Below, piece by piece: positions 3,070 to 45,918 of a stretch of 64,000 nt of DNA; the stretch's first letter is position 1, and each line of letters starts with the position of its first letter. The notes under the pieces were generated by a model. That model was given only the letters and a program-made list of their open reading frames with translations, was not told where the DNA came from and did no database searches. The translations under genes and the position numbers were made by a program. This DNA comes from an uncultured Gammaproteobacteria bacterium (GTDB lineage Bacteria; Patescibacteriota; Microgenomatia; Daviesbacterales; UBA10151): positions 7,020 through 71,019 of the forward strand of contig CAZJNI010000005.1 of NCBI GenBank assembly GCA_964547465.1, given 5' to 3'.

Positions 3070-5262
3070 ATTAACTTAAAATATCTGGAATTATTACTTT
3101 TGTTTTTTCTCTTAACCTTGATTTTGGCATTGAAAACTCAAGTCGCTTCCGCCCAAACTCCAACTCCAGTACCTCTGCCTTGTGGTTTTGGGGTAGCCAG
3201 AGCAACTGGATTGGTTACTACACCAAAGTTCCAGTCAGGTAGCAGTAACTTTGGCACCACTGGAGCTTGTATTATTGACCCTAAAACTTCTTTTGCTCCA
3301 TTTAAGATTCCTTCATTTGATGATTTAAAATCACTTTATTATAATCAAAAAAATAGTACTAACGTCACTAAACATGAGTTGAGTGGAAATCCGCCGTACA
3401 GCCAAACCAACATACCTTTCACTGATTCTACAGACTCTCTTTATCTTGTTAACAGTGATCTAACAATCAGCGGCAATAACACTGGTACTCATACCGGTGT
3501 TGTTTTTGTAGAAGGGAACCTGAATATAACTGGAAATTATTGTTACGGAAGCACTTGCCCTGCAGGTTCTGTCAATGGCACAATAGGCACTGTATTTATT
3601 GTTAGTGGGAATGTTAATATTGCCTCAACAGTTACCAGGATTGATGCGGTTTTAATCTCCAGTGGCACAATTTATACTGCCGGAGCAAATTGTAATCCTA
3701 ATTCTGTGACAGGAAGCAGCAAACTAACTATAAACGGTAGCTTAATATCCTTAAAACAGCCTTCAATCACGGATCCAAACGCTTCTTATATCAAATTCTG
3801 TAGATCTCTAACAGATAATAGTCAACCTGCAGAAGTAATTAATCATCAGGTAAAATATTTAGTAATTTTACGGGATCTCATATCTGATACCTGGCAAAAA
3901 TGGTCAGAGATCGATGCCAGCTTACCCCTGCCAACACCTGGCTCTACCCCTGCCCCAACCCCCATTCCCACCCCAACCCCCACACCCACACCAACACCTA
4001 CCTCAACTCCAACACCAACTTCCTGTTCTGTGACCGCAGGGGTTGTAACCTGTAACTATGCTGGTACTCAACAAACATGGGTTGTACCAACTGGTATAAC
4101 TTCTATTAGTGTCGACGCCAAAGGCGCCCAAGGAAGTAATGGTAATCGGGGTGCAACTGGTGGAAAAGGGGCGCGTGTTATAGCAACTATTAGTGTTACT
4201 GCAGGAGAGACTTTGTATATCTATGTAGGCGGACAGTCTCTTGGGAGGTCGGGTGGATATAACGGAGGAGGGACAGGTGGCACAGACCCATCAAGTGATC
4301 TTGCCGGGGGTGGCGGAGGTGCGTCCGACATCCGGAAAGGCGGAACAGCGATTAGTAACCGTGTTGTAATTGCGGGTGGTGGAGGAGGTGGCGGCTCGGA
4401 ATGTTCCGCATGCTTAAATGTAGCAGGATCAGGCGGAGCTGCCGGTGACCCTCTAGGTAAAATTGGGTCTAATGGAACCGGGACTTATAAGGGATTTGGT
4501 GGTGGGGGTGGTACTATGACTGCCGGAGGAAGCGGAGGTGCAAGCGGTGGTGGTGCTTCAACTGCCGGCTCTAGTCCTGTTAGTGCTGGTATTGGTGGGG
4601 CTGGAGGAAATGGCGCTGGTAATGGAGGTGGAGGTGGAGGTGGCGGAGGCGGTTATTATGGTGGAGGCGGTGGAGGTGGTGGTGATAATGCCGGCAGTAA
4701 TGCTGGAGGTGGCGGTGGAGGTGGTGGATCCAGCTATGGTGATACATTTACCAGCGGCTATCAAAGTGGCAACGGTCAAATTATTATCACGTATTCAACT
4801 TCTACTCCCCAACCTGTTGTGACTTACTACCGTGATGCGGATGGTGATACATATGGTAATCCCAGTGTCACAACCACTTCTTCAACAGGTGCACCTGCCG
4901 GTTATGTCTCCAATAATACTGACTGTTATGACTCAAATGCCAATGCCAAACCAGGCCAAACTCTTTACTTTGCTACCCAAAGAGGTGATGGCAGTTTTGA
5001 TTATGATTGTAATGGGACAATAGAAACAGACGGAAAAGCAATCCATCAAGGTACAGGTGGTTATAGTAAAAATATTGTTTCTGGTAACTGTGCCTATGTT
5101 TCTAATGCTAAATACGGTGCTAAACTTACAAGTAGTTCTTGTGGAACTACTGGAACCTATTATGTTTATGAAGATAACAGGGTGTACGATGGCAGTTGTA
5201 CAGGGACTCTTCTTGGGTATCTTCTTCAAGATATAGGTACATACACAATGCAATGCAGATAA
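3061..5262 (+). CDS. Secreted glycine-rich protein (733 aa). It has a signal peptide, a Pro-Thr linker, a long poly-Gly/GGxGG low-complexity region and a C-terminal Cys-containing domain.
   Basis: The N-terminus MKNINLKYLELLLLFFLLTLILALKTQVASA is a signal peptide. The protein contains PTPTPTPTPTPTS and GGGGGGG runs. Confidence 0.6.
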   Translation: MKNINLKYLELLLLFFLLTLILALKTQVASAQTPTPVPLPCGFGVARATGLVTTPKFQSGSSNFGTTGACIIDPKTSFAPFKIPSFDDLKSLYYNQKNSTNVTKHELSGNPPYSQTNIPFTDSTDSLYLVNSDLTISGNNTGTHTGVVFVEGNLNITGNYCYGSTCPAGSVNGTIGTVFIVSGNVNIASTVTRIDAVLISSGTIYTAGANCNPNSVTGSSKLTINGSLISLKQPSITDPNASYIKFCRSLTDNSQPAEVINHQVKYLVILRDLISDTWQKWSEIDASLPLPTPGSTPAPTPIPTPTPTPTPTPTSTPTPTSCSVTAGVVTCNYAGTQQTWVVPTGITSISVDAKGAQGSNGNRGATGGKGARVIATISVTAGETLYIYVGGQSLGRSGGYNGGGTGGTDPSSDLAGGGGGASDIRKGGTAISNRVVIAGGGGGGGSECSACLNVAGSGGAAGDPLGKIGSNGTGTYKGFGGGGGTMTAGGSGGASGGGASTAGSSPVSAGIGGAGGNGAGNGGGGGGGGGGYYGGGGGGGGDNAGSNAGGGGGGGGSSYGDTFTSGYQSGNGQIIITYSTSTPQPVVTYYRDADGDTYGNPSVTTTSSTGAPAGYVSNNTDCYDSNANAKPGQTLYFATQRGDGSFDYDCNGTIETDGKAIHQGTGGYSKNIVSGNCAYVSNAKYGAKLTSSSCGTTGTYYVYEDNRVYDGSCTGTLLGYLLQDIGTYTMQCR

Positions 5263-7360: not shown

Positions 7361-7455
7361 TTTCTCAAGATTTACTTAATTTCTTTGCCGCTGCTTCTAT
7401 CGCGAGTGCTATTGTTGTAGTGATTATTTATATTCTTTTCCTGAAAGAGAGATGA
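7357..7455 (+). CDS. Micro-ORF of 32 aa forming a single TM helix (MISQDLLNFFAAASIASAIVVVIIYILFLKER).
   Basis: Its ATG overlaps the stop of the preceding ORF. It is hydrophobic. It is absent from the ORF track because it is shorter than 60 aa. Confidence 0.35.
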   Translation: MISQDLLNFFAAASIASAIVVVIIYILFLKER

Positions 7456-7464
7456 GGTGAGATT

Positions 7465-7548
7465 ATGTTAACACCACTGGTGATTGCTGGAATTATTGCC
7501 ACTATTATTGTGGTGTTTATTGCTATCACTCTTTATCGCCGTTAAAAT
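7465..7548 (+). CDS. Micro-ORF of 26 aa forming a single TM helix (MLTPLVIAGIIATIIVVFIAITLYRR).
   Basis: The ATG follows a GAGGTGA ribosome-binding site. It is hydrophobic. Confidence 0.35.
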
Positions 7549-17249: not shown

Positions 17250-17743
17250 ACACAACAGATAATCAGAATGAACTTCTAGTAGTTGTTGATCCTGATGATA
17301 AAGTTTTAGACTATCTTCCCCGCAAAGTGGTCCATGCACAAAAATTATTACATAGGACAATAAGCGTTTCTGTTTTCAATGACAAAGGAGAAATACTTCT
17401 CCAAAAAAGAAGTGCTACAAAAGATAGTAATGCTGGTAAGTGGGCTAATGCTGCTGGAGGACATGTAACTAAAAATAAAGATTATGAAGAAACCACAAGT
17501 AGAGAAGTTGAAGAAGAACTTGGCATCCAGCCAAAACTTACTTTAATTAAGAAGATGATAATAAATGATCCAGTCCACACCACCATGACTTGTGTGTACA
17601 AAACTTTTGCAAATGGTCCTTTTGAGTTTAATAAAGAGGAAATTGATGAAGTTAAGTTTTATTCCAAACAAAATTTAAGGACTATTGAAAATCAACTTTC
17701 TGAATCAGCAAGAATTGTTTTACACTTACAAGGAATGATATGA
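17246..17743 (+). CDS. Nudix hydrolase resembling type-1 IPP isomerase (Idi-like). The catalytic Cys is not conserved (NAAGGHV).
   Basis: Nudix box GG.....EE....REV.EELG. Its position in the mevalonate operon supports the call. Confidence 0.55.
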   Translation: MNTTDNQNELLVVVDPDDKVLDYLPRKVVHAQKLLHRTISVSVFNDKGEILLQKRSATKDSNAGKWANAAGGHVTKNKDYEETTSREVEEELGIQPKLTLIKKMIINDPVHTTMTCVYKTFANGPFEFNKEEIDEVKFYSKQNLRTIENQLSESARIVLHLQGMI

Positions 17744-38025: not shown

Positions 38026-38641
38026 TATACTAACTTTAATGTCCCAAAAAGGGCTTGCACCAATAACTATAATAGTTGGGATTTTAATAGCAGTGATTAT
38101 TGCTGGTGGAGCATATTATTTAGGAAGACAAACTACTCCCAAATCCTCACCTGCTGTTGTTTCCCAAACTCCACAACCTACTCCATCTCCAACTCCAGAT
38201 GCCAGCCCTGTACCGAATGGTACCGGGGAAACTGCCAACTGGAAAACATATACAAATACAGTCTATCAGTATTCTTTAAAATATCCGCCTCATTGGCAAT
38301 ATATCATATGTCAATCTTCTAATAATTTTTACTTTGATCCTAATCCTGCTTGTGAAACTGATGATCCTGGGGTACTTACATTGCACATTGATAACGAAAT
38401 AAAACAGCCACTTATTAATATTAGCGATGAATTTCAGGCGGTAAGCAAAAAGGTGGTCACAATAGGAAATGAGCAGGGAGAGAAAATTTTAGTTGAGAAA
38501 GTGAAACCAGCACCAGGAGCAGATAAAATTACAATTGCTGCAGTAACCCACAATGGTAAAACTTACACATTTAACCTACAAGACATTAATGAAGAAAATA
38601 CACTTGATCAAATCCTTTCCACCTTTAAATTCCTACCTTAG
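37973..38641 (+). CDS. Membrane-anchored hypothetical protein with a Pro-Thr linker.
   Basis: TM segment ITIIVGILIAVIIAGGAYYLG, then PQPTPSPTPD. Confidence 0.5.
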   Translation: MSPLNSPALPPAGALRNDILTLMSQKGLAPITIIVGILIAVIIAGGAYYLGRQTTPKSSPAVVSQTPQPTPSPTPDASPVPNGTGETANWKTYTNTVYQYSLKYPPHWQYIICQSSNNFYFDPNPACETDDPGVLTLHIDNEIKQPLINISDEFQAVSKKVVTIGNEQGEKILVEKVKPAPGADKITIAAVTHNGKTYTFNLQDINEENTLDQILSTFKFLP

Positions 38642-38667
38642 TTTTTCTCCTATTAGTCTTGCATTGG

Positions 38668-38829
38668 AACAAAGGGCGTTAAACGATGAGTGTTTTGGCA
38701 GCAGGGGGAAACGACAACTGAACAATTAGTGAATTGTCGAGGGGGTAAGCCCCCGCTAGACAAAACACGAAGAGTAGCCCGACTTCCCTGCAAGAAACTT
38801 TTGTCACACTTTTGGTTACAAAAGTGTGA
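38668..38829. ncRNA. Structured non-coding element, copy 1, of an unidentified family.
   Basis: ~80% identical to 45658-45820, with compensatory substitutions in three stems. Confidence 0.55.
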
Positions 38830-38843
38830 AGAAAAAATGACAA

Positions 38844-39998
38844 TTACAAAATCTTTCCATCCTCTACTTTTAAAATCCTGCTGGAATCTAAAAATTCCTG
38901 TGGGATGTTTTCTAGCTCTACTGTGGCAATTATGGTTTGTTGTTTAGAAACTATCTCCACCACATGAGCTCTATGATTTGCATCTAATTCTGAAAATACA
39001 TCATCAAGCAGTAAAATTGGCCTTTGATTTAATATTTTGGCCATATATTCCAGCTGGGCCAATTTAAAAGCCAAAGTGGCTGTTCTTTGTTCACCTCTGG
39101 AACCAAAATGTGCCAAATCACGTCCACCCCCACCGTCATTGCGAGGTCCGACATTCTGTCGGACCGTGGCAATCTTTACTGAATCAAGATTCCTACGCTC
39201 GCTTCGCTCGCTCGGAATGACATCTTGATATAGGATGACACGAAAATCATCCCTGTGGGGACCAATTAAAGTTTGGGCAGCAGCCACTTCCCTGCCATTT
39301 GTTTCTTTTAATTTCTCCACTGAAATTGGGCTTTGTTTGTATTCAAACTTAAACTCACCTAAAGGAGTTTCTAAACTATTAATAAAATTAAAAAAATCTT
39401 CACGCTTTACCCTTACCCCTTCACCCTGTTTGACTAATTCATCTGTCCAGTATTCCAGCTCATCCAGCCTTCCATGTCCTTCCCTAATTTTTTTTAACAC
39501 CCTATTTCTGGAAGTTAAAAATGCCTCATATTGAGTCAGAGTTTTTTTATAAACAGAATCAATCTGGGCTAAACCTAAATCCAAATGCCACCTCCTTAAA
39601 GATGGCGGACCTGTCACCATATTTATATCAGATGGATAAAAAATCACAGCCGGTAAATTTCCTATAAAATCAACTACTTTTCTGGAAATACCATTAACCA
39701 AGACTTTCTTTTTAAAATTCACATCTTTATTAGGTCTATTTAGAATTACCAAAAGTTCAGTCTCTCCTCCATCCACAACAAACCCTTCAACTTTGGCAAA
39801 TTCCTTACCTGTCTTTATTAACTCATCCTCCTGTTCTACCCTTTGAGATTTAGAAGTAGACAGTAAATATACTGCCTCTAAAATATTGGATTTACCTGCA
39901 GCATTATTGCCTACAAAAATAGTGGGACGAGCATCAAAAGTGAGTTCTAAATTAGGGTAGTTTCTAAAGTTTGTAAGATTTAGGCTTTTAAGATGCAT
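38844..39998 (-). CDS. recF: DNA replication and repair protein RecF carrying a MITE insertion.
   Basis: Walker A GNNAAGKSNILEA. SMC-like C-terminal signature. Confidence 0.85.
   Translation of the reverse strand: MHLKSLNLTNFRNYPNLELTFDARPTIFVGNNAAGKSNILEAVYLLSTSKSQRVEQEDELIKTGKEFAKVEGFVVDGGETELLVILNRPNKDVNFKKKVLVNGISRKVVDFIGNLPAVIFYPSDINMVTGPPSLRRWHLDLGLAQIDSVYKKTLTQYEAFLTSRNRVLKKIREGHGRLDELEYWTDELVKQGEGVRVKREDFFNFINSLETPLGEFKFEYKQSPISVEKLKETNGREVAAAQTLIGPHRDDFRVILYQDVIPSERSERRNLDSVKIATVRQNVGPRNDGGGGRDLAHFGSRGEQRTATLAFKLAQLEYMAKILNQRPILLLDDVFSELDANHRAHVVEIVSKQQTIIATVELENIPQEFLDSSRILKVEDGKIL
39135..39221. mobile_element. Palindromic MITE-like element of 87 bp, in-frame within recF.
   Basis: gtcattgcgag-gtccgacattctgtcggac-cgtggcaatc...cgctcgcttcgctcgctcggaatgac. 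Confidence 0.85.
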
Positions 39999-40099
39999 GA
40001 AGGGAATATTACAGGTTCAAAGTGCAAAATGCAAAGTGAAAAGTGATTGTCTTTTTCTTTTCAGAAAACTTTTAATTTTTAACTTTAAACTTTTAACTT

Positions 40100-41473
40100 T
40101 TAACTTTTATTCTCCCAATGTCCAAATCCCAAAAACTCTCTAATGTGTGCGGGCAGGAATTTTTCTGAAAAAAACAGGCTGGGTTTTAAACCAAAAATCC
40201 CTATTAAAGTAATCATTACCCCAACACCCATAAGTATCGGCGTTACACCAAATAAATCTGCAAAAATACCTGCCAATAGTACCGGGACTAAAGATAATGC
40301 TGACATGGCAGCCCCCAGTGTTGCAAAAACTTTTCCTCTATCTTCATCGGGGGTATTTTCCTGCAACACTGTTTGAGATGGTACCAAAATTGAAACCATT
40401 GCAAGTCCTAAAAGGAAAGATGAAACTATAAATAATATAGATAAAGGTGGCTGGTAAAAAAATGGTAACGGTCTTGGGATTTTAAAATAACTTATGGCCG
40501 GGAATACCACCGGGGCGATAGCCATAAATAAAAATATTAATCCTCCTAAAAGAATCCCTTTACCAACAACTACCCTTTTTATCAGAGTTGAACCGAGTTT
40601 TCCCAAAATAATTCCACCTAATACAATCCCCAACCCTAACGGAATAACTAATATGTAGGAAGCATTAGTAGCTTCAATATGCAATGATCTCTCTAAAAAA
40701 GCAGGCAGCAGCACTGCTAAAACTCCGATCACAACTTGTACTCCTGCCAGGATTGCAATTGATGTCAAAACAGGCAATTTTCCCCTGATCAGCCTTAGAG
40801 TTTGTAGAATCTCATTCATACCTATCTCCTTAACATCTGAATATTTTTTATATTTTAGTGCATGAAGAAGTTTTCTTCCCTGCTCATCAGGTTTCGCGAG
40901 AATTTTGGGAAATGTATAAGCTAAAACAAAACCTAAAGTCAATATTGCTGCTCCAAAACCAAAGATAAAATCTATTCCTAATAAAGAAATAACCAACCCG
41001 GCCAGGCCAAAGCCTATAAGGAAACATGAATATAAAGTTACGGAAAAAATCGAATTGGCTGTTAAAAGTTGTTCTCTTTTGACAATCAAGGGTATGGCTG
41101 ATGCCTCTGTTGGTAAATAGAATTGCCCCAGAGAATTAACCAAAAATGCGATCAGAAGTACTGCCGGATAATACCCTTTTAAAGAAATAAGGCTCAAAAA
41201 TAAAATTGCTAGACTAATATTAATTACCAGTATAATTTTTTTGCGATCCATTAAATCAACCAGTACTCCGGAAAATAAACTGAAAAAAACACCAGGTAAG
41301 TAAACTACAGCCATTAAGGTTGCCACAGCTGTATTAGAATTGGTTAATTTAAAAACCCAAATGATCAGAGCAAAATTTAGGGCATTATAGGAAAGCTGGA
41401 CAATAATTTGGTTTATCCAAAGGTTTAAAAATCCCCGGTTTTGAAAAACCGAGGTAAAGGTCTGTTTCTCCAT
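40100..41473 (-). CDS. MFS transporter.
   Basis: 12 or more hydrophobic helices over 457 aa. Confidence 0.75.
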   Translation of the reverse strand: MEKQTFTSVFQNRGFLNLWINQIIVQLSYNALNFALIIWVFKLTNSNTAVATLMAVVYLPGVFFSLFSGVLVDLMDRKKIILVINISLAILFLSLISLKGYYPAVLLIAFLVNSLGQFYLPTEASAIPLIVKREQLLTANSIFSVTLYSCFLIGFGLAGLVISLLGIDFIFGFGAAILTLGFVLAYTFPKILAKPDEQGRKLLHALKYKKYSDVKEIGMNEILQTLRLIRGKLPVLTSIAILAGVQVVIGVLAVLLPAFLERSLHIEATNASYILVIPLGLGIVLGGIILGKLGSTLIKRVVVGKGILLGGLIFLFMAIAPVVFPAISYFKIPRPLPFFYQPPLSILFIVSSFLLGLAMVSILVPSQTVLQENTPDEDRGKVFATLGAAMSALSLVPVLLAGIFADLFGVTPILMGVGVMITLIGIFGLKPSLFFSEKFLPAHIREFLGFGHWENKS

Positions 41474-41491
41474 ACAACTTTAGTATTATAC

Positions 41492-42409
41492 TCATTTTTG
41501 ACAATTTGGGCAAAAATATGTGCCGCGGCCCCCAAGAGTAATCTTTTTAATTTCGCTGCCATCTCTGGGGCAAGGCTTTCCATTTTTCCAATACACTTTA
41601 GCATAATCCAGGAAGTAGCCTTTTCTACCTTCAGAATCTACAAAATGTGCTCTGGTTGCTCCTCCATATTTGATCCCATTTTTGATCACCCTGATCACCC
41701 CTTTGTGTATTGCTTTAAATTCCCTATCCCCCATATCTCCCACTTTAGTCCTGGGATCTAATTTAGCATCAAAACAAGCTTCATTGGAGTAAATATTTCC
41801 TACTCCCGCAACAACTTGCTGATCCATCAAAGCCACTTTTACAGGCATGGATTTGTGCTTCAGTAAATTAGTCTTCAGAACTTGCCAAGTAAAACTTTTC
41901 TCCAGTGGTTCTGGCCCCAAATTCCCCAAATTTCCCCAATCTCCCTTAATTACTCGGATCCAGCCAAAACGCCGCTGGTCATTAAAATATAAATGTGAAC
42001 CGTCAGAAAAAGAAAAAATTACTCTGGTATGTGAATTCGGTAACGGTCCAACCATATCTTCTGTTGGGTGTCCACCGACAAAACGGGTTCCATCTTCATA
42101 GATTATTTGTCCTGTCATTTTAAGATGAAATAGCAAAGTAACATCCTTGTCATTGCGAGGAGACGCAGTCGACGAAGCAATCTGTTTTAGTAGATTGCCA
42201 CGCCCCTTCGGGGCTCGCAATGACGGGGTTAGGTCTATGCCTAATATTTTGGCTCTTCTCCAGATATTGAGTACTTTTTTACCCTGGGCCAAATTAGGAT
42301 TTCCAATGAAAGATTTGGCAGATAAAACCTGGATTTTGGTAATTTTTAACCCAATAATTTTCTTTTGCAACCCTAACTTAATTGTCTCAACTTCTGGCAA
42401 CTCCGGCAT
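41492..42409 (-). CDS. mutM: Formamidopyrimidine-DNA glycosylase (Fpg/MutM) carrying a MITE insertion and a GNLGNLG repeat.
   Basis: N-terminal MPELPEVETI and a C-terminal CxxC...CxxC zinc finger. Confidence 0.85.
   Translation of the reverse strand: MPELPEVETIKLGLQKKIIGLKITKIQVLSAKSFIGNPNLAQGKKVLNIWRRAKILGIDLTPSLRAPKGRGNLLKQIASSTASPRNDKDVTLLFHLKMTGQIIYEDGTRFVGGHPTEDMVGPLPNSHTRVIFSFSDGSHLYFNDQRRFGWIRVIKGDWGNLGNLGPEPLEKSFTWQVLKTNLLKHKSMPVKVALMDQQVVAGVGNIYSNEACFDAKLDPRTKVGDMGDREFKAIHKGVIRVIKNGIKYGGATRAHFVDSEGRKGYFLDYAKVYWKNGKPCPRDGSEIKKITLGGRGTYFCPNCQK
42149..42224. mobile_element. Palindromic MITE-like element in the opposite orientation, in-frame within fpg.
   Basis: gtcattgcgaggagacgcagtcgacgaagcaatc...gattgccacgccccttcggggctcgcaatgac. 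Confidence 0.85.
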
Positions 42410-42428
42410 GAAGTTATTCTAGCAGGAT

Positions 42429-43442
42429 TTAAGAAGATTTACCTGCCCGGGCAGGAAGGCCCTGGCGGGCTAAAGAGGCTGATTTGCATCTTTTATAAAA
42501 TTCATCCTGGGATGCTTTAATATTTTCCTCTTTACCTGCCCAGATTTTCATGGGAGCATTCTGCAATCCTCTGGAATAGGAAAAAGTCAGCGGCCAGGGC
42601 CCCCCGATTTTGCTAATTTCTAAAAGATTTTCTATGGATGCTTCATCAGATTGTCCGCCGGATAAAAATGCTATTCCCCCCGCTTCCGGAGGAACTGACT
42701 GCTTTAGTGCATCAACGCTCATTTTTGCCACAGTTTTTGAATCAGCTTGAACAGAACAATCTTTGCCGGATAAAACCATGCTGGGCTTTAAAATCATACC
42801 TTCTAATACTCCTTTATGCGCCTTAATCCTTTCAAAAACCTTTTTTAAGGTTCTGATTTGAGCTTCAAAACACTGCTCAATAGTATGATTCCCGTCAAGT
42901 AATACCTCCGGCTCCACAATTGGCACAATATCAGCCTCCTGACAAAGCGTGGCATAACGGGCTAAAACCTCTGCATTTGCCTCAATACAGGTATCTGTAG
43001 GGATTCCATCCCCTATTGCAATTGTGGCCCTGAATTTGGCAAACTTTGCACCCAGATCCTTATACTCTACTAACCTGTCTCTTAACCCATCCAATCCTTC
43101 TGCTACTTTTTCTCCTGGAAAATTAGGCAAATCATGAACTCCTTTATCTACTTTTATTCCGGGAATAATACCTTTACCTGCTAAAAGTTTGGGTATAGCT
43201 ATACCATCAGTTGTTTTTTGTCTTAGTGTTTCATCAAATAAAATTACCCCTGATAAAAACTCTTCAACACCGGGAGTGGTAAAAAGCATCTGTCTGTAAG
43301 CTAACCTGTTTTCTTCTGTACACTCAATCCCCAGAACATCAAATCTTTTTTGGATAGTTTTGGTAGATTCATCTGCTGCCAGAAGCCCTTTGGGGGATGT
43401 CATCATGGCTTGAGCTGTTTGTTTAAGAGTTATTATATCCAT
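42429..43442 (-). CDS. fba: Fructose-bisphosphate aldolase, class I.
   Basis: LLAADESTKTIQKRF matches the class I aldolase signature. Confidence 0.75.
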   Translation of the reverse strand: MDIITLKQTAQAMMTSPKGLLAADESTKTIQKRFDVLGIECTEENRLAYRQMLFTTPGVEEFLSGVILFDETLRQKTTDGIAIPKLLAGKGIIPGIKVDKGVHDLPNFPGEKVAEGLDGLRDRLVEYKDLGAKFAKFRATIAIGDGIPTDTCIEANAEVLARYATLCQEADIVPIVEPEVLLDGNHTIEQCFEAQIRTLKKVFERIKAHKGVLEGMILKPSMVLSGKDCSVQADSKTVAKMSVDALKQSVPPEAGGIAFLSGGQSDEASIENLLEISKIGGPWPLTFSYSRGLQNAPMKIWAGKEENIKASQDEFYKRCKSASLARQGLPARAGKSS

Positions 43443-43454
43443 TCTTTCTCTCTG

Positions 43455-43555
43455 TCATTGCGAGCGAACTTTAGTTCGCGTGGCAATCTAATTCATGAAT
43501 AAGATTGCTTCGTCACTCGAAAGTCGTCTAGACTTTCTCCCTCCTCGCAATGACG
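43455..43555. mobile_element. Intergenic copy of the palindromic MITE-like element (101 bp).
   Basis: gtcattgcgag-cgaactttagttcg-cgtggcaatc...gattgcttcgtcactcgaaagtcgtctagactttctccctcctcgcaatgac. Confidence 0.8.
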
Positions 43556-43556
43556 G

Positions 43557-44549
43557 TTAGTGGTGAACCGTGTTATTTATCTTTACACCAGCAGAGTCAA
43601 CTGTCAAGGTGGTCACCTTACTTTCCCCTTTCCCCTTTCCCCTTTCCCCTTTTAAATCAAACCATTTATTCTCATCCGTAATTGCAGAAATAGACACCAA
43701 ACAATCCGAAAGTTTTCCGGAAACCAGATCATCAACGCTCCATACTTTTTCATATCTTTTAGCTATTTCAGGATCTGGCGTCCAACCCCTTGCTTCAACA
43801 AAAGCTCCCAAAGCTTTTCCTGCAACAGCAGCCATCACCCCTTCCTCAAATCCCCCGGAACCCATAATCAGGTGTAGTCCTTTCTTATGTTTTTTGGGAT
43901 CCAAAAATGCCAGAATTGAAGGCATAAAATCCCCGGCTTTAATTAAAATTAAATTCACCCCGAATTTCTGGCAGGCATTAATATAGTGGGCATTTCTATC
44001 CCGCTCCATTATTACCACATTAATCTCATGAGGTTCTATTTTGAAAGTATCCACTACTTCTGCTAAATTTTCTTCCACACTATTTTCCATAGACAGCTTT
44101 CCCTTAAGTTGGGGCGGGCCGAACAGCTTATCCATATAATCAATGTCGTCAGGTGTTGCCATTAAGCCTTTATGAGTTGATACAGCAATCACAGAAACAG
44201 CTCCTGGGGAATTTAGCTTGGCAGCTTTTGACCCTTCTACCACATCATTAACCATATCCAGTTTAGGTTCTCCGGATCCGAATGTACCCATCAGGGTAGG
44301 CAGCGCTTCTCCATATTGATGAATATGTTTTCTGCCTTCTGATCCGACAATTTCTAAAGTAAACGGGATATCTGTCAATGCCGTTGCCATGGCATCCACT
44401 CCGGCCTGATCTATCAGCTTTTCGCGGGCTTTAGATTCTTCCTCCTCCAATAAATCATTTGGGGTAAACCCTCTTTCTTTAATTAGTTTGGAAACAGAAA
44501 TAGCAGTAAGTTCAGTTGCGCGGGTTATATGTTTCTTAACAGAATCCAT
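43557..44549 (-). CDS. glpX: Fructose-1,6-bisphosphatase class II (GlpX-like) carrying a (GKG)n repeat insertion.
   Basis: DMVNDVVEGSKAAKLNSPGAVSVIAVS...DIDYMDKLFGPP parallels GlpX. Confidence 0.6.
   Translation of the reverse strand: MDSVKKHITRATELTAISVSKLIKERGFTPNDLLEEEESKAREKLIDQAGVDAMATALTDIPFTLEIVGSEGRKHIHQYGEALPTLMGTFGSGEPKLDMVNDVVEGSKAAKLNSPGAVSVIAVSTHKGLMATPDDIDYMDKLFGPPQLKGKLSMENSVEENLAEVVDTFKIEPHEINVVIMERDRNAHYINACQKFGVNLILIKAGDFMPSILAFLDPKKHKKGLHLIMGSGGFEEGVMAAVAGKALGAFVEARGWTPDPEIAKRYEKVWSVDDLVSGKLSDCLVSISAITDENKWFDLKGERGKGKGESKVTTLTVDSAGVKINNTVHH
43621..43652. repeat. Heptamer tandem repeat (CTTTCCC) x4 inside glpX.
   Basis: Perfect period-7 repeat. Confidence 0.9.
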
Positions 44550-44593
44550 GAGGTAGAAGTTACACTATCGTAAGTTTTGTTCTCTGTCAATTA

Positions 44594-45358
44594 CTAAACC
44601 TGTTGTCGCTTTGGCCTGAGTCCTGTATCTTCCAGGATTTTATCTTTCTGGACATAGAAATCAGTCAACGCTTGATAATGTTGCTGCTCCCTACCACATC
44701 CAGCACAACGGAATACAGGTATCTGCTCAAAAGTCATGTGTACTGTTGCATCTTTGCCTCCCCGCATCTGTTCTGTATTATCAAAACGCTGAAATGGAGC
44801 GGAAGATTGACATTCTTCATCTAGACAAGTCACTTGTAAATTTCGATACGCCTCAGCGTTATCAGGAACTAGGGTGTAACTTCGTAAGTTGGGCGACCAA
44901 CCCGGAGGAATTAATACCACGCTCGTAGCTTCTTTATTAAGTAAACCTAAATACTTGGTTCTAGCAGCTTCAGGATACTGACCTACAATTCCATCTAATG
45001 AAGAAGCAGGTACATAATCAAGCTCTACTCCTATACCACCAGGACGCAGATATTGCACAATTTGTCGGTCGAAAAGCTGATTGAACTCTCTTTTTTGTTC
45101 TTCTGTCATATTTTGTCCAACATCATTTTGCCCACCCTGTAAAACATGAAATGATAGATATCGTCCTGGATAATCTCTTCTTGCGCTTGTACTTGTACCG
45201 ACAACACCGATATCAACCGCTCCTAAAATATTATTTACTTTTCTACGATAGAAACCTCTGAATAATGCAACATACATATATGCTCTACTTGGGGTAACTT
45301 GATTGTCGGTAAACCATCCTCTTACCTGTTCCAGTGTATTTGGTACCTGCTCAACCAT
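44594..45358 (-). CDS. Hypothetical protein (254 aa) with C-terminal Cys pairs (CLDEEC...CAGCG). Its GC content is noticeably higher than that of its neighbours.
   Basis: Intact ORF. No recognisable family from sequence alone. Confidence 0.5.
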   Translation of the reverse strand: MVEQVPNTLEQVRGWFTDNQVTPSRAYMYVALFRGFYRRKVNNILGAVDIGVVGTSTSARRDYPGRYLSFHVLQGGQNDVGQNMTEEQKREFNQLFDRQIVQYLRPGGIGVELDYVPASSLDGIVGQYPEAARTKYLGLLNKEATSVVLIPPGWSPNLRSYTLVPDNAEAYRNLQVTCLDEECQSSAPFQRFDNTEQMRGGKDATVHMTFEQIPVFRCAGCGREQQHYQALTDFYVQKDKILEDTGLRPKRQQV

Positions 45359-45475
45359 ACGGAGCGATTATATATCCCTACCTCATTATTTGCAAATTTT
45401 TCTCTATTAGCTCCAAAATCTCTTTTTTAAATCTTTCTTTAGGGTGTAATAATCTTAATATCTCTCATTGGAAAA

Positions 45476-45625
45476 TCAGATTTGTTGTTTTATATTAAGA
45501 ACACGTTCATAAAGAGCCATACGGATATACCCTGATATACTTTCTCCACTAAGCTTGCGATACTTATCAATATCTTTGCGGAGTCTTTTTGACATTAAAA
45601 CCTCAACTCTCTGCATTCTAGCCAT
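45476..45625 (-). CDS. Small ribbon-helix-helix (CopG/Arc-like) protein of 49 aa. It is not in the ORF track.
   Basis: MARMQRVEVLMSKRLRKDIDKYRKLSGESISGYIRMALYERVLNIKQQI has the beta strand plus two helices pattern of RHH antitoxins and regulators. Confidence 0.45.
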   Translation of the reverse strand: MARMQRVEVLMSKRLRKDIDKYRKLSGESISGYIRMALYERVLNIKQQI

Positions 45626-45657
45626 ATATTCTTAAATTATATTTCTTTTTTGCTTAG

Positions 45658-45820
45658 AAACAAAGAGCGTTAAACGAGGAAGATTTTGATATCAGGGGGA
45701 ACCGGAAACTGAACGATTAGTGAATTTCCGAGGGGGTGAACCCCCGATCAGCAAAATCTGACGAGTAGCTCGACTTTCCAGCAAAAAGAGTTTTGTGATA
45801 CTTTTGCGGTCAAAAGTATC
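45658..45820. ncRNA. Structured non-coding element, copy 2.
   Basis: Homologous to 38668-38829. It has no ORF. Confidence 0.55.
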
Positions 45821-45918
45821 AAATAAGAAATAATTAATGAATCCTGAAATAAATTCAGGATGACATTTTAGGAAGATTCTCCTATACTAATTCCAAAATT
45901 TCTTTTTTGAATATTTCT

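Follow-up and report, generated by a model that had tools for sequence, protein, structure and literature searches.

What kind of sequence occurs as two similar non-coding segments on either side of a block of housekeeping genes in a bacterium of the candidate phyla radiation (CPR)? The question is raised by positions 38668-38829 and 45658-45820 of the window, the whole 64-kb stretch of contig CAZJNI010000005.1 that was analysed. The original prediction regarded these segments as homologous, and as either a functional RNA or a structured transposon end, such as an IS200/IS605-like palindrome-associated element (PATE). The homology has held in a MAFFT alignment and under a covariance model, and the segments are two whole copies of one ~185-nt non-coding element in the same orientation. 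As to its nature, the structured, RNA-like, non-coding part of the proposal stood and the IS200/IS605 PATE end did not. The element represents a new, uncatalogued non-coding family under structural constraint, whose core, a three-way junction, is near-invariant. It is read here, tentatively and with somewhat less than even confidence, as a new structured element of low copy number that is mobile or exchanged horizontally and in which selection acts on the folded single strand.

Covariation and architecture of the element

Alignment of 38640-38860 with 45630-45850 gave a mean column identity of 84% over 230 columns, flanks included. The covariance model placed the units at 38655-38839 and 45646-45831 (~198 bits each), slightly wider than first proposed, and neither this model nor pattern searches found a third copy in the 64-kb window. 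The two copies are 69% identical outside the core. RNAalifold on these two alone yielded 53 pairs, of which 13 are compensatory and none is broken.

Eighteen further copies were found elsewhere, and the proposed stems are kept in them. The model-based alignment of all 20 copies, with a revised apical hairpin, contains 834 pair cells; standard pairs occupy 96.8% of these, against 32-50% when the 3' partners are slid by 1-3 columns. As many as 28 of the 42 pairs have changed on both sides (143 cells), and in 500 column shuffles the real alignment was never equalled, whether in the fraction of paired cells, in the number of doubly changed pairs or cells, or in covariation score. Against dinucleotide shuffles, the folds of both strands of both window copies gave z-scores of -3.6 to -7.7. 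Across the 20 copies the core is nearly invariant and the stems covary.

Overall, a long irregular helix (P1-P4) leads to a three-way junction that carries two near-invariant hairpins (P5 and P6), and a separate conserved 3' hairpin comes last. U-rich sequence precedes the unit and A-rich sequence comes after it. The parts lie in the window as follows.

38655..38839, + strand: copy 1, whole unit, between the stop of a 222-aa open reading frame (ORF) at 38641 and the recF stop at 38844; match to model R1 of 197.7 bits, E 7e-44; fold z-score -5.9
38657..38669, + strand: copy 1, 5' strands of the outer helix P1 (UCUUGCA, GGAA), with partners at 38784-38795 in the minimum free energy fold; helix 1 covaries in 3 of 4 pairs over 20 copies
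38674..38697, + strand: copy 1, 5' strands of P2 (GGGC) and P3 (AACGAUGAGUGUUUUG), with partners at 38761-38780; the conserved internal loop GUUAA separates P2 from P3, which has tandem G.A mismatches; helices 2-5 covary
38700..38711, + strand: copy 1, 5' strand of P4 (AGC, paired to GCU at 38755-38757), then junction strand A-GGGGG-AAA; its G-run (38704-38708), the first of two, complements the C-run (38750-38754), with alternative pairings 3.5 kcal/mol apart
38712..38739, + strand: copy 1, apical hairpin P5, with stem CGACAA/UUGUCG, bulged C, symmetric UGAA/UGAA (tandem G.A) and loop CAAUUAG; helix 7 is 100% paired, 5 of 8 pairs covary, and the loop-closing A:U becomes G:C in L158 and L160
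38741..38754, + strand: copy 1, hairpin P6, GGGGG-UAAG-CCCCC; helix 8 is 99% paired, with double changes in L150 and L116
38797..38839, + strand: copy 1, 3' module, with box ACUUUUG (38797-38803), then the hairpin, then an A-rich tail (38830-38839); no U-tract follows it on either strand, and there is no terminator-like site
38804..38829, + strand: copy 1, 3' hairpin UCACACUUUUG-GUUA-CAAAAGUGUGA; 7 of 10 pairs of helix 9 covary
45640..45832, + strand: copy 2, whole unit (model match 45646-45831), antisense between higA (stop 45919) and a 49-aa RHH gene (start 45625); match to model R1 of 198 bits; fold z-score -3.6
45640-45647 and 45825-45832: copy 2, perfect 8-nt inverted ends TATTTCTT and AAGAAATA, with ATTA outside them at 45636-45639 and 45833-45836
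45646-45660 (P1), 45665-45668 (P2), 45674-45688 (P3) and 45691-45693 (P4), + strand: copy 2, 5' strands, with partners at 45746-45788
45695..45745, + strand: copy 2, near-invariant core, with the first G-run at 45695-45699 and P5 at 45703-45730
45732-45745, + strand: copy 2, hairpin P6, GGGGG-UGAA-CCCCC
45796..45821, + strand: copy 2, 3' hairpin UGAUACUUUUG-CGGU-CAAAAGUAUCA

Within the family, P1 consists of two segments that close the domain. It is followed by a conserved asymmetric loop (CARAG opposite CGA(C/A)), by P2 (4 bp, four pair types) and by a conserved internal loop (CGUnAA opposite UAG). P3 covers ~15 positions, with two tandem G.A/A.G blocks in one subtype group, and is wholly Watson-Crick in another. 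P4 (3 bp) is followed by the three-way junction, which comprises the strand A-GGGGG-AAC, P5, a single A, and P6 (GGGGG-YRAG-CCCCC). The family form of P5 has a covarying 6-bp stem (CGGAAA/UUUCCG), a bulged C, the pairs U:A, G.A, A.G and A:U, and the loop CGAUUAG. The 3' module is made of a short linker with the box ACUUUUG, the separate hairpin NNNACUUUUG-loop-CAAAAGUNNN, whose motif is found solely within the element, and the A-rich tail. The inner stem first predicted for P5 (ACUGA/UUAGU, with an invariant G.U) was replaced by the tandem G.A model UGAA/UGAA; this register is favoured because the A-to-G and U-to-C changes of L158 and L160 fall at positions that are paired in no other.

Three helices had been proposed from paired changes between the window copies. 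The first, CGACAA/TTGTCG in one copy and CGGAAA/TTTCCG in the other, is real and equals P5, and the third holds as the 3' hairpin (TCACACTTTTG..CAAAAGTGTGA). The second, GGGGG/CCCCC, exists as P6; the window copies yield no covariation for it because they differ in the P6 loop only, and the covariation is given by L150 and L116. These three are the smaller part of the structure, as the pairing of the 5' and 3' halves in P1-P4 (~135 nt) had been missed.

In L158 the element is broken within P3 by a ~60-nt palindromic insert (AGCTTGAAAAC...GCTTTCAAAC, 4255-4315). The same small repeat is also seen downstream of the element in L123/L135.

Folded strand and possible switch

The + strand of the window is moderately favoured as the folded strand, judging from the types of mismatch. 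The paired columns on this strand hold 17 purine-purine against 2 pyrimidine-pyrimidine mismatches, and 9 G.U against 3 A.C (binomial p = 0.15). Likewise, the tandem G.A blocks would read C.U on the other strand. Thermodynamics does not separate the strands, since both fold well.

The C-run is equally complementary to the first G-run, in the junction, and to the second, and either pairing gives 96-99% paired cells. Constrained folding of 11 copies placed the two conformations 0.4-4.6 kcal/mol apart. The three runs change together in L150 (GGGGG to GGGAA twice, CCCCC to UUCCC), and L116 (GGUGG/CCACC) fits P6 and not the alternative pairing. A two-state switch of the G-runs over the C-run may be hinted at by these patterns; the idea comes from a single sequence, L150, and therefore stays a hint.

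Distribution of the family

All named hosts of the 20 copies are Candidatus Daviesbacteria, a CPR lineage. The organism of the window was itself assigned to this lineage, in the Microgenomates/CPR group, by its RecF homologues. The scan of one genome per species (185,579 species representatives) used an exact pattern of 18 specified bases of the apical loop and found 14 places, of which 8 are true homologues by nhmmer. Seven of these are in metagenome-assembled genomes (MAGs) of Daviesbacteria, and the eighth is a divergent copy in an unclassified MAG (L116). The MAG MFDZ01 contains two copies, L123 and L127, which belong to differing subtypes. Metagenome contigs searched with the exact apical-loop pattern added 7 distinct copies. 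L146 is the single exact-pattern match on a 1.02-Mb contig. One more copy, L156, was met at a site fetched for another reason, and two (L158 and L160) were found via proteins wrongly predicted by gene callers across the element. The element is 182-193 nt long, is present in 1-2 copies per genome and falls into discrete subtypes.

Viral contigs scanned for CTGAACNATTAGTGAA gave 110 matches, all due to chance by nhmmer, and a second, degenerate scan gave 11, none of which fits the model. Similarly, blastn against phage and plasmid collections gave no match. In the collections searched, and as far as these sample it, the family is restricted to Candidatus Daviesbacteria. A protein-database search with translations of the core returned just four proteins among 5.8 billion, all of them spurious ORFs over the element. 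Public gene calls place such ORFs, of 87-202 aa, in L146, L158, L160 and one JGI contig (proteins P0241-P0244), and in L160 a glyoxalase-like gene has been called too long, so that it runs upstream through the element.

Presence, absence and replacement at orthologous sites

Orthologous sites show both presence or absence of the element and replacement of one subtype by another, and it is these differences that support the wider suggestion of mobility in the original prediction. The gatC-gatA junction is empty in L155 (1937-1944), where the genes overlap (ATGAGTGA), and is filled by one subtype in L136 (3025-3207) and by another in L156 (2348-2532). In L154 (3296-3520), L163 (1507-1855) and L161 (906-980) the same junction has an unrelated GIY-YIG mini-element or its repeat remnants. 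It is thus an insertion hot spot in Daviesbacteria.

The window copies also lie at variable places. In the relatives L111-L115, recF abuts a DUF5654 gene with no element, and the window has an additional 222-aa gene and copy 1 there. Likewise, the place of the RHH gene, a 254-aa ORF and copy 2 is taken in L113 and L114 by an 88-aa and PIN pair; a strain-level empty site for copy 2 was looked up and none was found. The 49-aa RHH gene and the 254-aa Cys-rich ORF, which has no Pfam match, occupy 44594-45625 between higBA and glpX, and this slot is probably a variable toxin-antitoxin slot. At mvk-mvaD the element of L128 (6381-6565) stands where the window (17246-17743) has a 165-aa ORF, apparently Nudix/idi-like. 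This locus was rejected as a second clean empty site because of the extra gene in the window.

Exchange of the element without its surroundings is suggested by several copies. For example, a right-flank product of L125 and L127 is 93% identical at the protein level, yet the two loci have differing subtypes and unrelated left flanks. Fragments of 27 nt from the 5' end of another subtype stand directly upstream of a full copy in L121 (~7440-7470, minus strand) and L146 (5810-5836), and both stop at the conserved GC/GTT internal loop. Leaving aside the invariant core, copies of one subtype from non-orthologous sites have 85-91% identity, and subtypes differ by 30-55%. For window copy 2 and L125 the identity outside the core is 89%, though the RecF proteins of the two genomes are only 71% identical.

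Traces at the ends are less regular. TATTCAT flanks the element at either end in L136 and, almost intact, in L156; in both, such a repeat could stem from constraint on the coding sequence of the gatC end and the gatA start. A/T-rich inverted ends of 7-8 nt occur in copy 1, copy 2 and L132 and may be due to chance; the inverted and direct repeats of copy 2 are possibly chance because its ends are A/T-rich. The 5' flanks share just A/T-rich sequence. The hexamer TCTTAA occurs in 7 copies at variable distance and is native coding sequence in L128.

Genomic context

The element is found in three kinds of spacer, each at five independent sites. It lies sense within co-directional gene series in L128 (mvk-mvaD), L158 (atpA-atpG), L160, L123/L135 (before prfB) and L129. 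It is antisense within gene series at window copy 2 (higA/RHH), L136/L156 (gatC/gatA), L138, L151 and L121/L125/L127. It stands between convergent genes at window copy 1, L132, L150, L146 and L117. None of the independent sites counted is between divergent genes, and the occupied spacers are probably transcribed. The spacer is usually filled almost exactly by the element. In L128, for example, it spans from the mvk stop codon to a few bases short of the mvaD ATG, and in L136 from ~10 nt past the gatC stop to a few nucleotides ahead of the gatA start.

Consensus scans found neither a sigma-70 promoter nor an intrinsic terminator at either window copy. The U-rich tract before the structure and the A-rich tract after it, on both strands, are the opposite of a terminator. 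Purine-rich ends are placed just upstream of the next start codon in L128, L158, L136 and L156, where a ribosome-binding site would lie.

An all-against-all comparison of the ORFs around the copies found no recurrent neighbouring protein. The sole shared neighbours are those of the syntenic group L121/L125/L127 and a 222-aa secreted-type protein beside three copies, in differing arrangements. The flanking genes (mvk/mvaD, atpA/atpG, gatC/gatA, prfB, pgk, topA and recF) have no common functional theme. The neighbours named in the original prediction (recF, higBA, the RHH gene and the Cys-rich ORF) are incidental, since none recurs beside the other 18 copies. The Zn-ribbon gene had been called GC-rich; its ORF has a GC content of 0.41, against 0.40-0.44 in the neighbours.

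Comparison with known families and element types

The whole window gave no match at gathering thresholds to Rfam 15 (4227 models). With E up to 10 nothing credible appeared, copy 1 having chance matches that did not exceed 15 bits and copy 2 having none, and in 17 related loci no Rfam family overlaps the element. ARAGORN found neither a tRNA nor a tmRNA in the window. A protein-coding role was rejected after translating 16 copies in all six frames, as every frame is stopped in some copies and no start codon is common to them, in line with the early observation that the segments share no conserved ORF. Likewise, a type I toxin-antitoxin or other small-protein gene was discarded, since there is no frame that stays open and has a start codon throughout the 16 copies. 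A fragment or mimic of 23S rRNA domain I was also considered. The likeness seen by eye (GGGGGAAC..CUGAA..UAAGU..CCGAGG..CCCCC..AGUAGC) is insignificant, with alignment to E. coli rrlH scoring 35-43 and shuffled queries up to 49.

A riboswitch or other cis-regulatory 5' leader does not fit, because most copies face a convergent gene or lie antisense and the downstream genes are unrelated; as for an expression platform, no terminator or recognisable helix sequestering a start site was found. The integron attC site is similar in several aspects. In both, structure is kept over stem sequence, a folded single strand would be the working form, the GTTAAAC in the 5' half of the element fits the GTTRRRY box, and each window copy is at one edge of a segment missing from relatives. 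However, GTTAAAC is located opposite UAG in the internal loop and has no RYYYAAC partner. The terminal structure, variable in attC, is the most conserved part here; the copies are solitary, with no cassette array, and several are element-only insertions. No integrase was found in the ORFs scanned.

Orphan structured RNA motifs in Rfam, some of them linked to mobile DNA, are also defined by covariation, are confined to narrow taxa and have a conserved junction and loops with no assigned function. Unlike these, the element matches no Rfam model, has no consistent gene association and occurs antisense in operons. Bacterial small mobile sequences resembling miniature inverted-repeat transposable elements, such as ERIC, YPAL, RUP and Correia, agree with it in a size of less than 200 bp without a protein and in filled and empty orthologous sites. 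The many near-identical copies per genome of such sequences are missing, with two copies in the 64 kb and two of differing subtypes in MFDZ01. Since the element fails the tests for Rfam families, IS200/IS605 ends, attC sites, riboswitch leaders and small-protein genes, it is no member of a named family.

The closest analogues are ERIC (IRU, 127 bp) and YPAL (RU-2, 168 bp), small mobile intergenic sequences of enterobacteria (PMC2229807). ERIC is co-transcribed and alters mRNA stability in an orientation-dependent manner, and YPAL has target duplications of 3-26 bp (PMC2229807). The Daviesbacteria element shares with them a size below 200 bp, the lack of coding capacity, a position in intergenic spacers, here probably co-transcribed, in either orientation, and a transcript that would fold as a long stem-loop. 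Filled and empty orthologous sites are also alike, and so may be the short inverted ends and the target duplications that are variable or absent. It differs in having 1-2 copies per genome rather than tens to hundreds, and those within one genome are divergent subtypes. Its strongest conservation is in the internal three-way junction with invariant loops and not in the ends, all its outer helices evolve by compensatory change, it has no sequence similarity to ERIC or YPAL, and its host is a CPR bacterium.

Mobile element, RNA gene or mRNA element

If the element is mobile or horizontally exchanged, the folded + strand would be its selected form, and it would move or be exchanged as a module. 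A trans-acting factor may recognise the conserved fold or core on a single strand, either RNA or single-stranded DNA, and such recognition could be needed for the persistence or spread of the element. The lack of terminators and the purine-rich ends at the position of a ribosome-binding site would make it tolerable inside operons, with no obvious polarity.

Several observations weigh against mobility. The strand assignment is weak (G.U against A.C, p = 0.15; both strands fold well), the flanking direct repeats are inconsistent (7 nt in L136/L156, 4 nt in copy 2, none in copy 1), and the inverted ends are short, A/T-rich and possibly due to chance. No mobilising enzyme was found in the ORFs scanned, and no copy on phage, plasmid or viral contigs. 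Genomes have only 1-2 copies, and where there are two they are of divergent subtypes (the window pair is 69% identical apart from the core); a repeat family with recent activity would look different, and old paralogous RNA genes would fit. Deep compensatory evolution with invariant loops is also expected of an RNA useful to the host.

The alternative that survives best, possible though rather doubtful, is a family of free-standing small RNA genes with 1-2 paralogues per genome. Each would have its own promoter on the + strand and act in trans, probably by protein binding or catalysis, and what looks like mobility would be the ordinary gain and loss of genes and their horizontal replacement among Daviesbacteria. 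Such a gene agrees with the compensatory change kept up over long times around an invariant junction and loops, with the RNA-typical motifs (tandem G.A pairs and the UGAA/UGAA internal motif) and with the divergent subtypes within a genome that are common to several genomes (the window; L123/L127 of MFDZ01). The near-isoenergetic two pairings of the C-run, with all three runs changed together in L150, point in the same direction. An A/T-rich -10-like hexamer is often present 5-12 nt upstream of P1. Against such a gene, the scans of the two window copies detected neither a promoter of the sigma-70 type nor an intrinsic terminator. Of the copies embedded in operons, half run antisense to the surrounding genes and are only 3-40 nt from the next start codon, which is not easily reconciled with an independent gene. 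Its sites are not conserved, and its spread is patchy, with the 8 true matches among the species representatives and the 4 spurious ORFs among the proteins.

A cis-acting role in polycistronic mRNAs, in processing, stability or insulation, is quite unlikely as the general explanation; it would resemble the role of ERIC in Yersinia, wherever the element is co-transcribed. The location would suit it, as the copies are always in probably transcribed spacers and never in divergent promoter regions, and both strands fold stably without a terminator. On the other hand, a simple stability hairpin needs neither a ~55-nt invariant core nor asymmetric loops rich in purines, the flanking genes have no function in common, and with both orientations in use the conserved strand is presented by half of the copies only.

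The IS200/IS605-type PATE or a leftover TnpB/IscB guide-RNA (omega-RNA) scaffold has hardly any probability left: the small, non-autonomous, folded single strand with a conserved hairpin near one end is similar, other mobile repeats cluster beside the element, and insertion without a consistent target duplication would fit, but each unit has a single hairpin of that type (CTTTTG..CAAAAG, ACTTTTG-type; elsewhere chance coding matches only) with no matching partner at the other end, the sequence after the scaffold is conserved and A-rich in place of a variable guide segment, the Rfam HEARO and IS605-orfB RNA models do not match, and no TnpA, TnpB or IscB was found nearby, nor a recurrent protein family beside the copies. 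Pfam searches of 28 ORFs (~27-56 kb of the window) found no transposase, TnpB, reverse transcriptase or integrase domain. Whether the copies mark the ends of one mobile unit or insertion sequence had also been raised. This idea was rejected, as both are complete and in direct orientation, and the 6.8 kb of housekeeping genes between them (recF-MFS-mutM-fba-glpX) is syntenic in relatives without the element.

Companion GIY-YIG repeats

An abundant palindromic repeat, GTCATTSCGAG...GSAATC facing GATTGC...GCAATGAC(A/G), was also noticed in the window, at the following places.

13733/13794, 15384/15456, 24082/24139, 26273/26370, 39142/39214, 42156/42217 and 43461/43547: palindromic repeat pairs
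11263, 14480 and 53567: single units of the repeat

In relatives the halves of this repeat flank a 94-aa GIY-YIG ORF (L163 1515-1870; truncated in L154), and for this reason the repeats appear to represent the termini of a mini GIY-YIG mobile element and its derivatives without the ORF. Two pairs are in frame inside coding genes, 39142-39214 in recF and 42156-42217 in mutM. The RecF repeat forms an insert of ~34 aa (SERSERRNLD...GPRNDGGGG) that is missing from 350-aa RecF homologues. A single right-end unit of the GIY-YIG type is found ~5-70 nt downstream of the structured element, in constant orientation, in the window (45850-45880), L125, L121, L138, L123/L135 and L117. This suggests that the GIY-YIG-type repeat targets a spot downstream of the element or travels with it.

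Implications for Daviesbacteria

One specific proposal, unlikely as it stands, is that the family is either a new functional RNA class carried on a mobile intergenic module, perhaps a bistable sensor or ribozyme-like with the junction as active site, or the folded-strand substrate of a CPR-specific recombination or retro-mobility system. In either case it would be non-autonomous and recognised via its internal structure and not its ends.

The non-coding RNA biology of the CPR is almost unexplored, and this Daviesbacteria element has unusually dense covariation (28 of 42 pairs) with nothing like it in Rfam. Two traits that are normally separate are joined in it, namely the structural conservation and core of a functional RNA and the site behaviour of a mobile repeat, the latter comprising filled and empty sites, subtype swaps, either orientation and a hot spot common to the GIY-YIG mini-element. 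Gene callers predict spurious ORFs across the element and prolong real genes into it, so a family model would clean up annotation. As an RNA gene, if it is one, the element could represent a new ribozyme, sensor or protein-binding RNA; as a mobile element, the reading tentatively preferred here, it would be one that is recognised via an internal fold.

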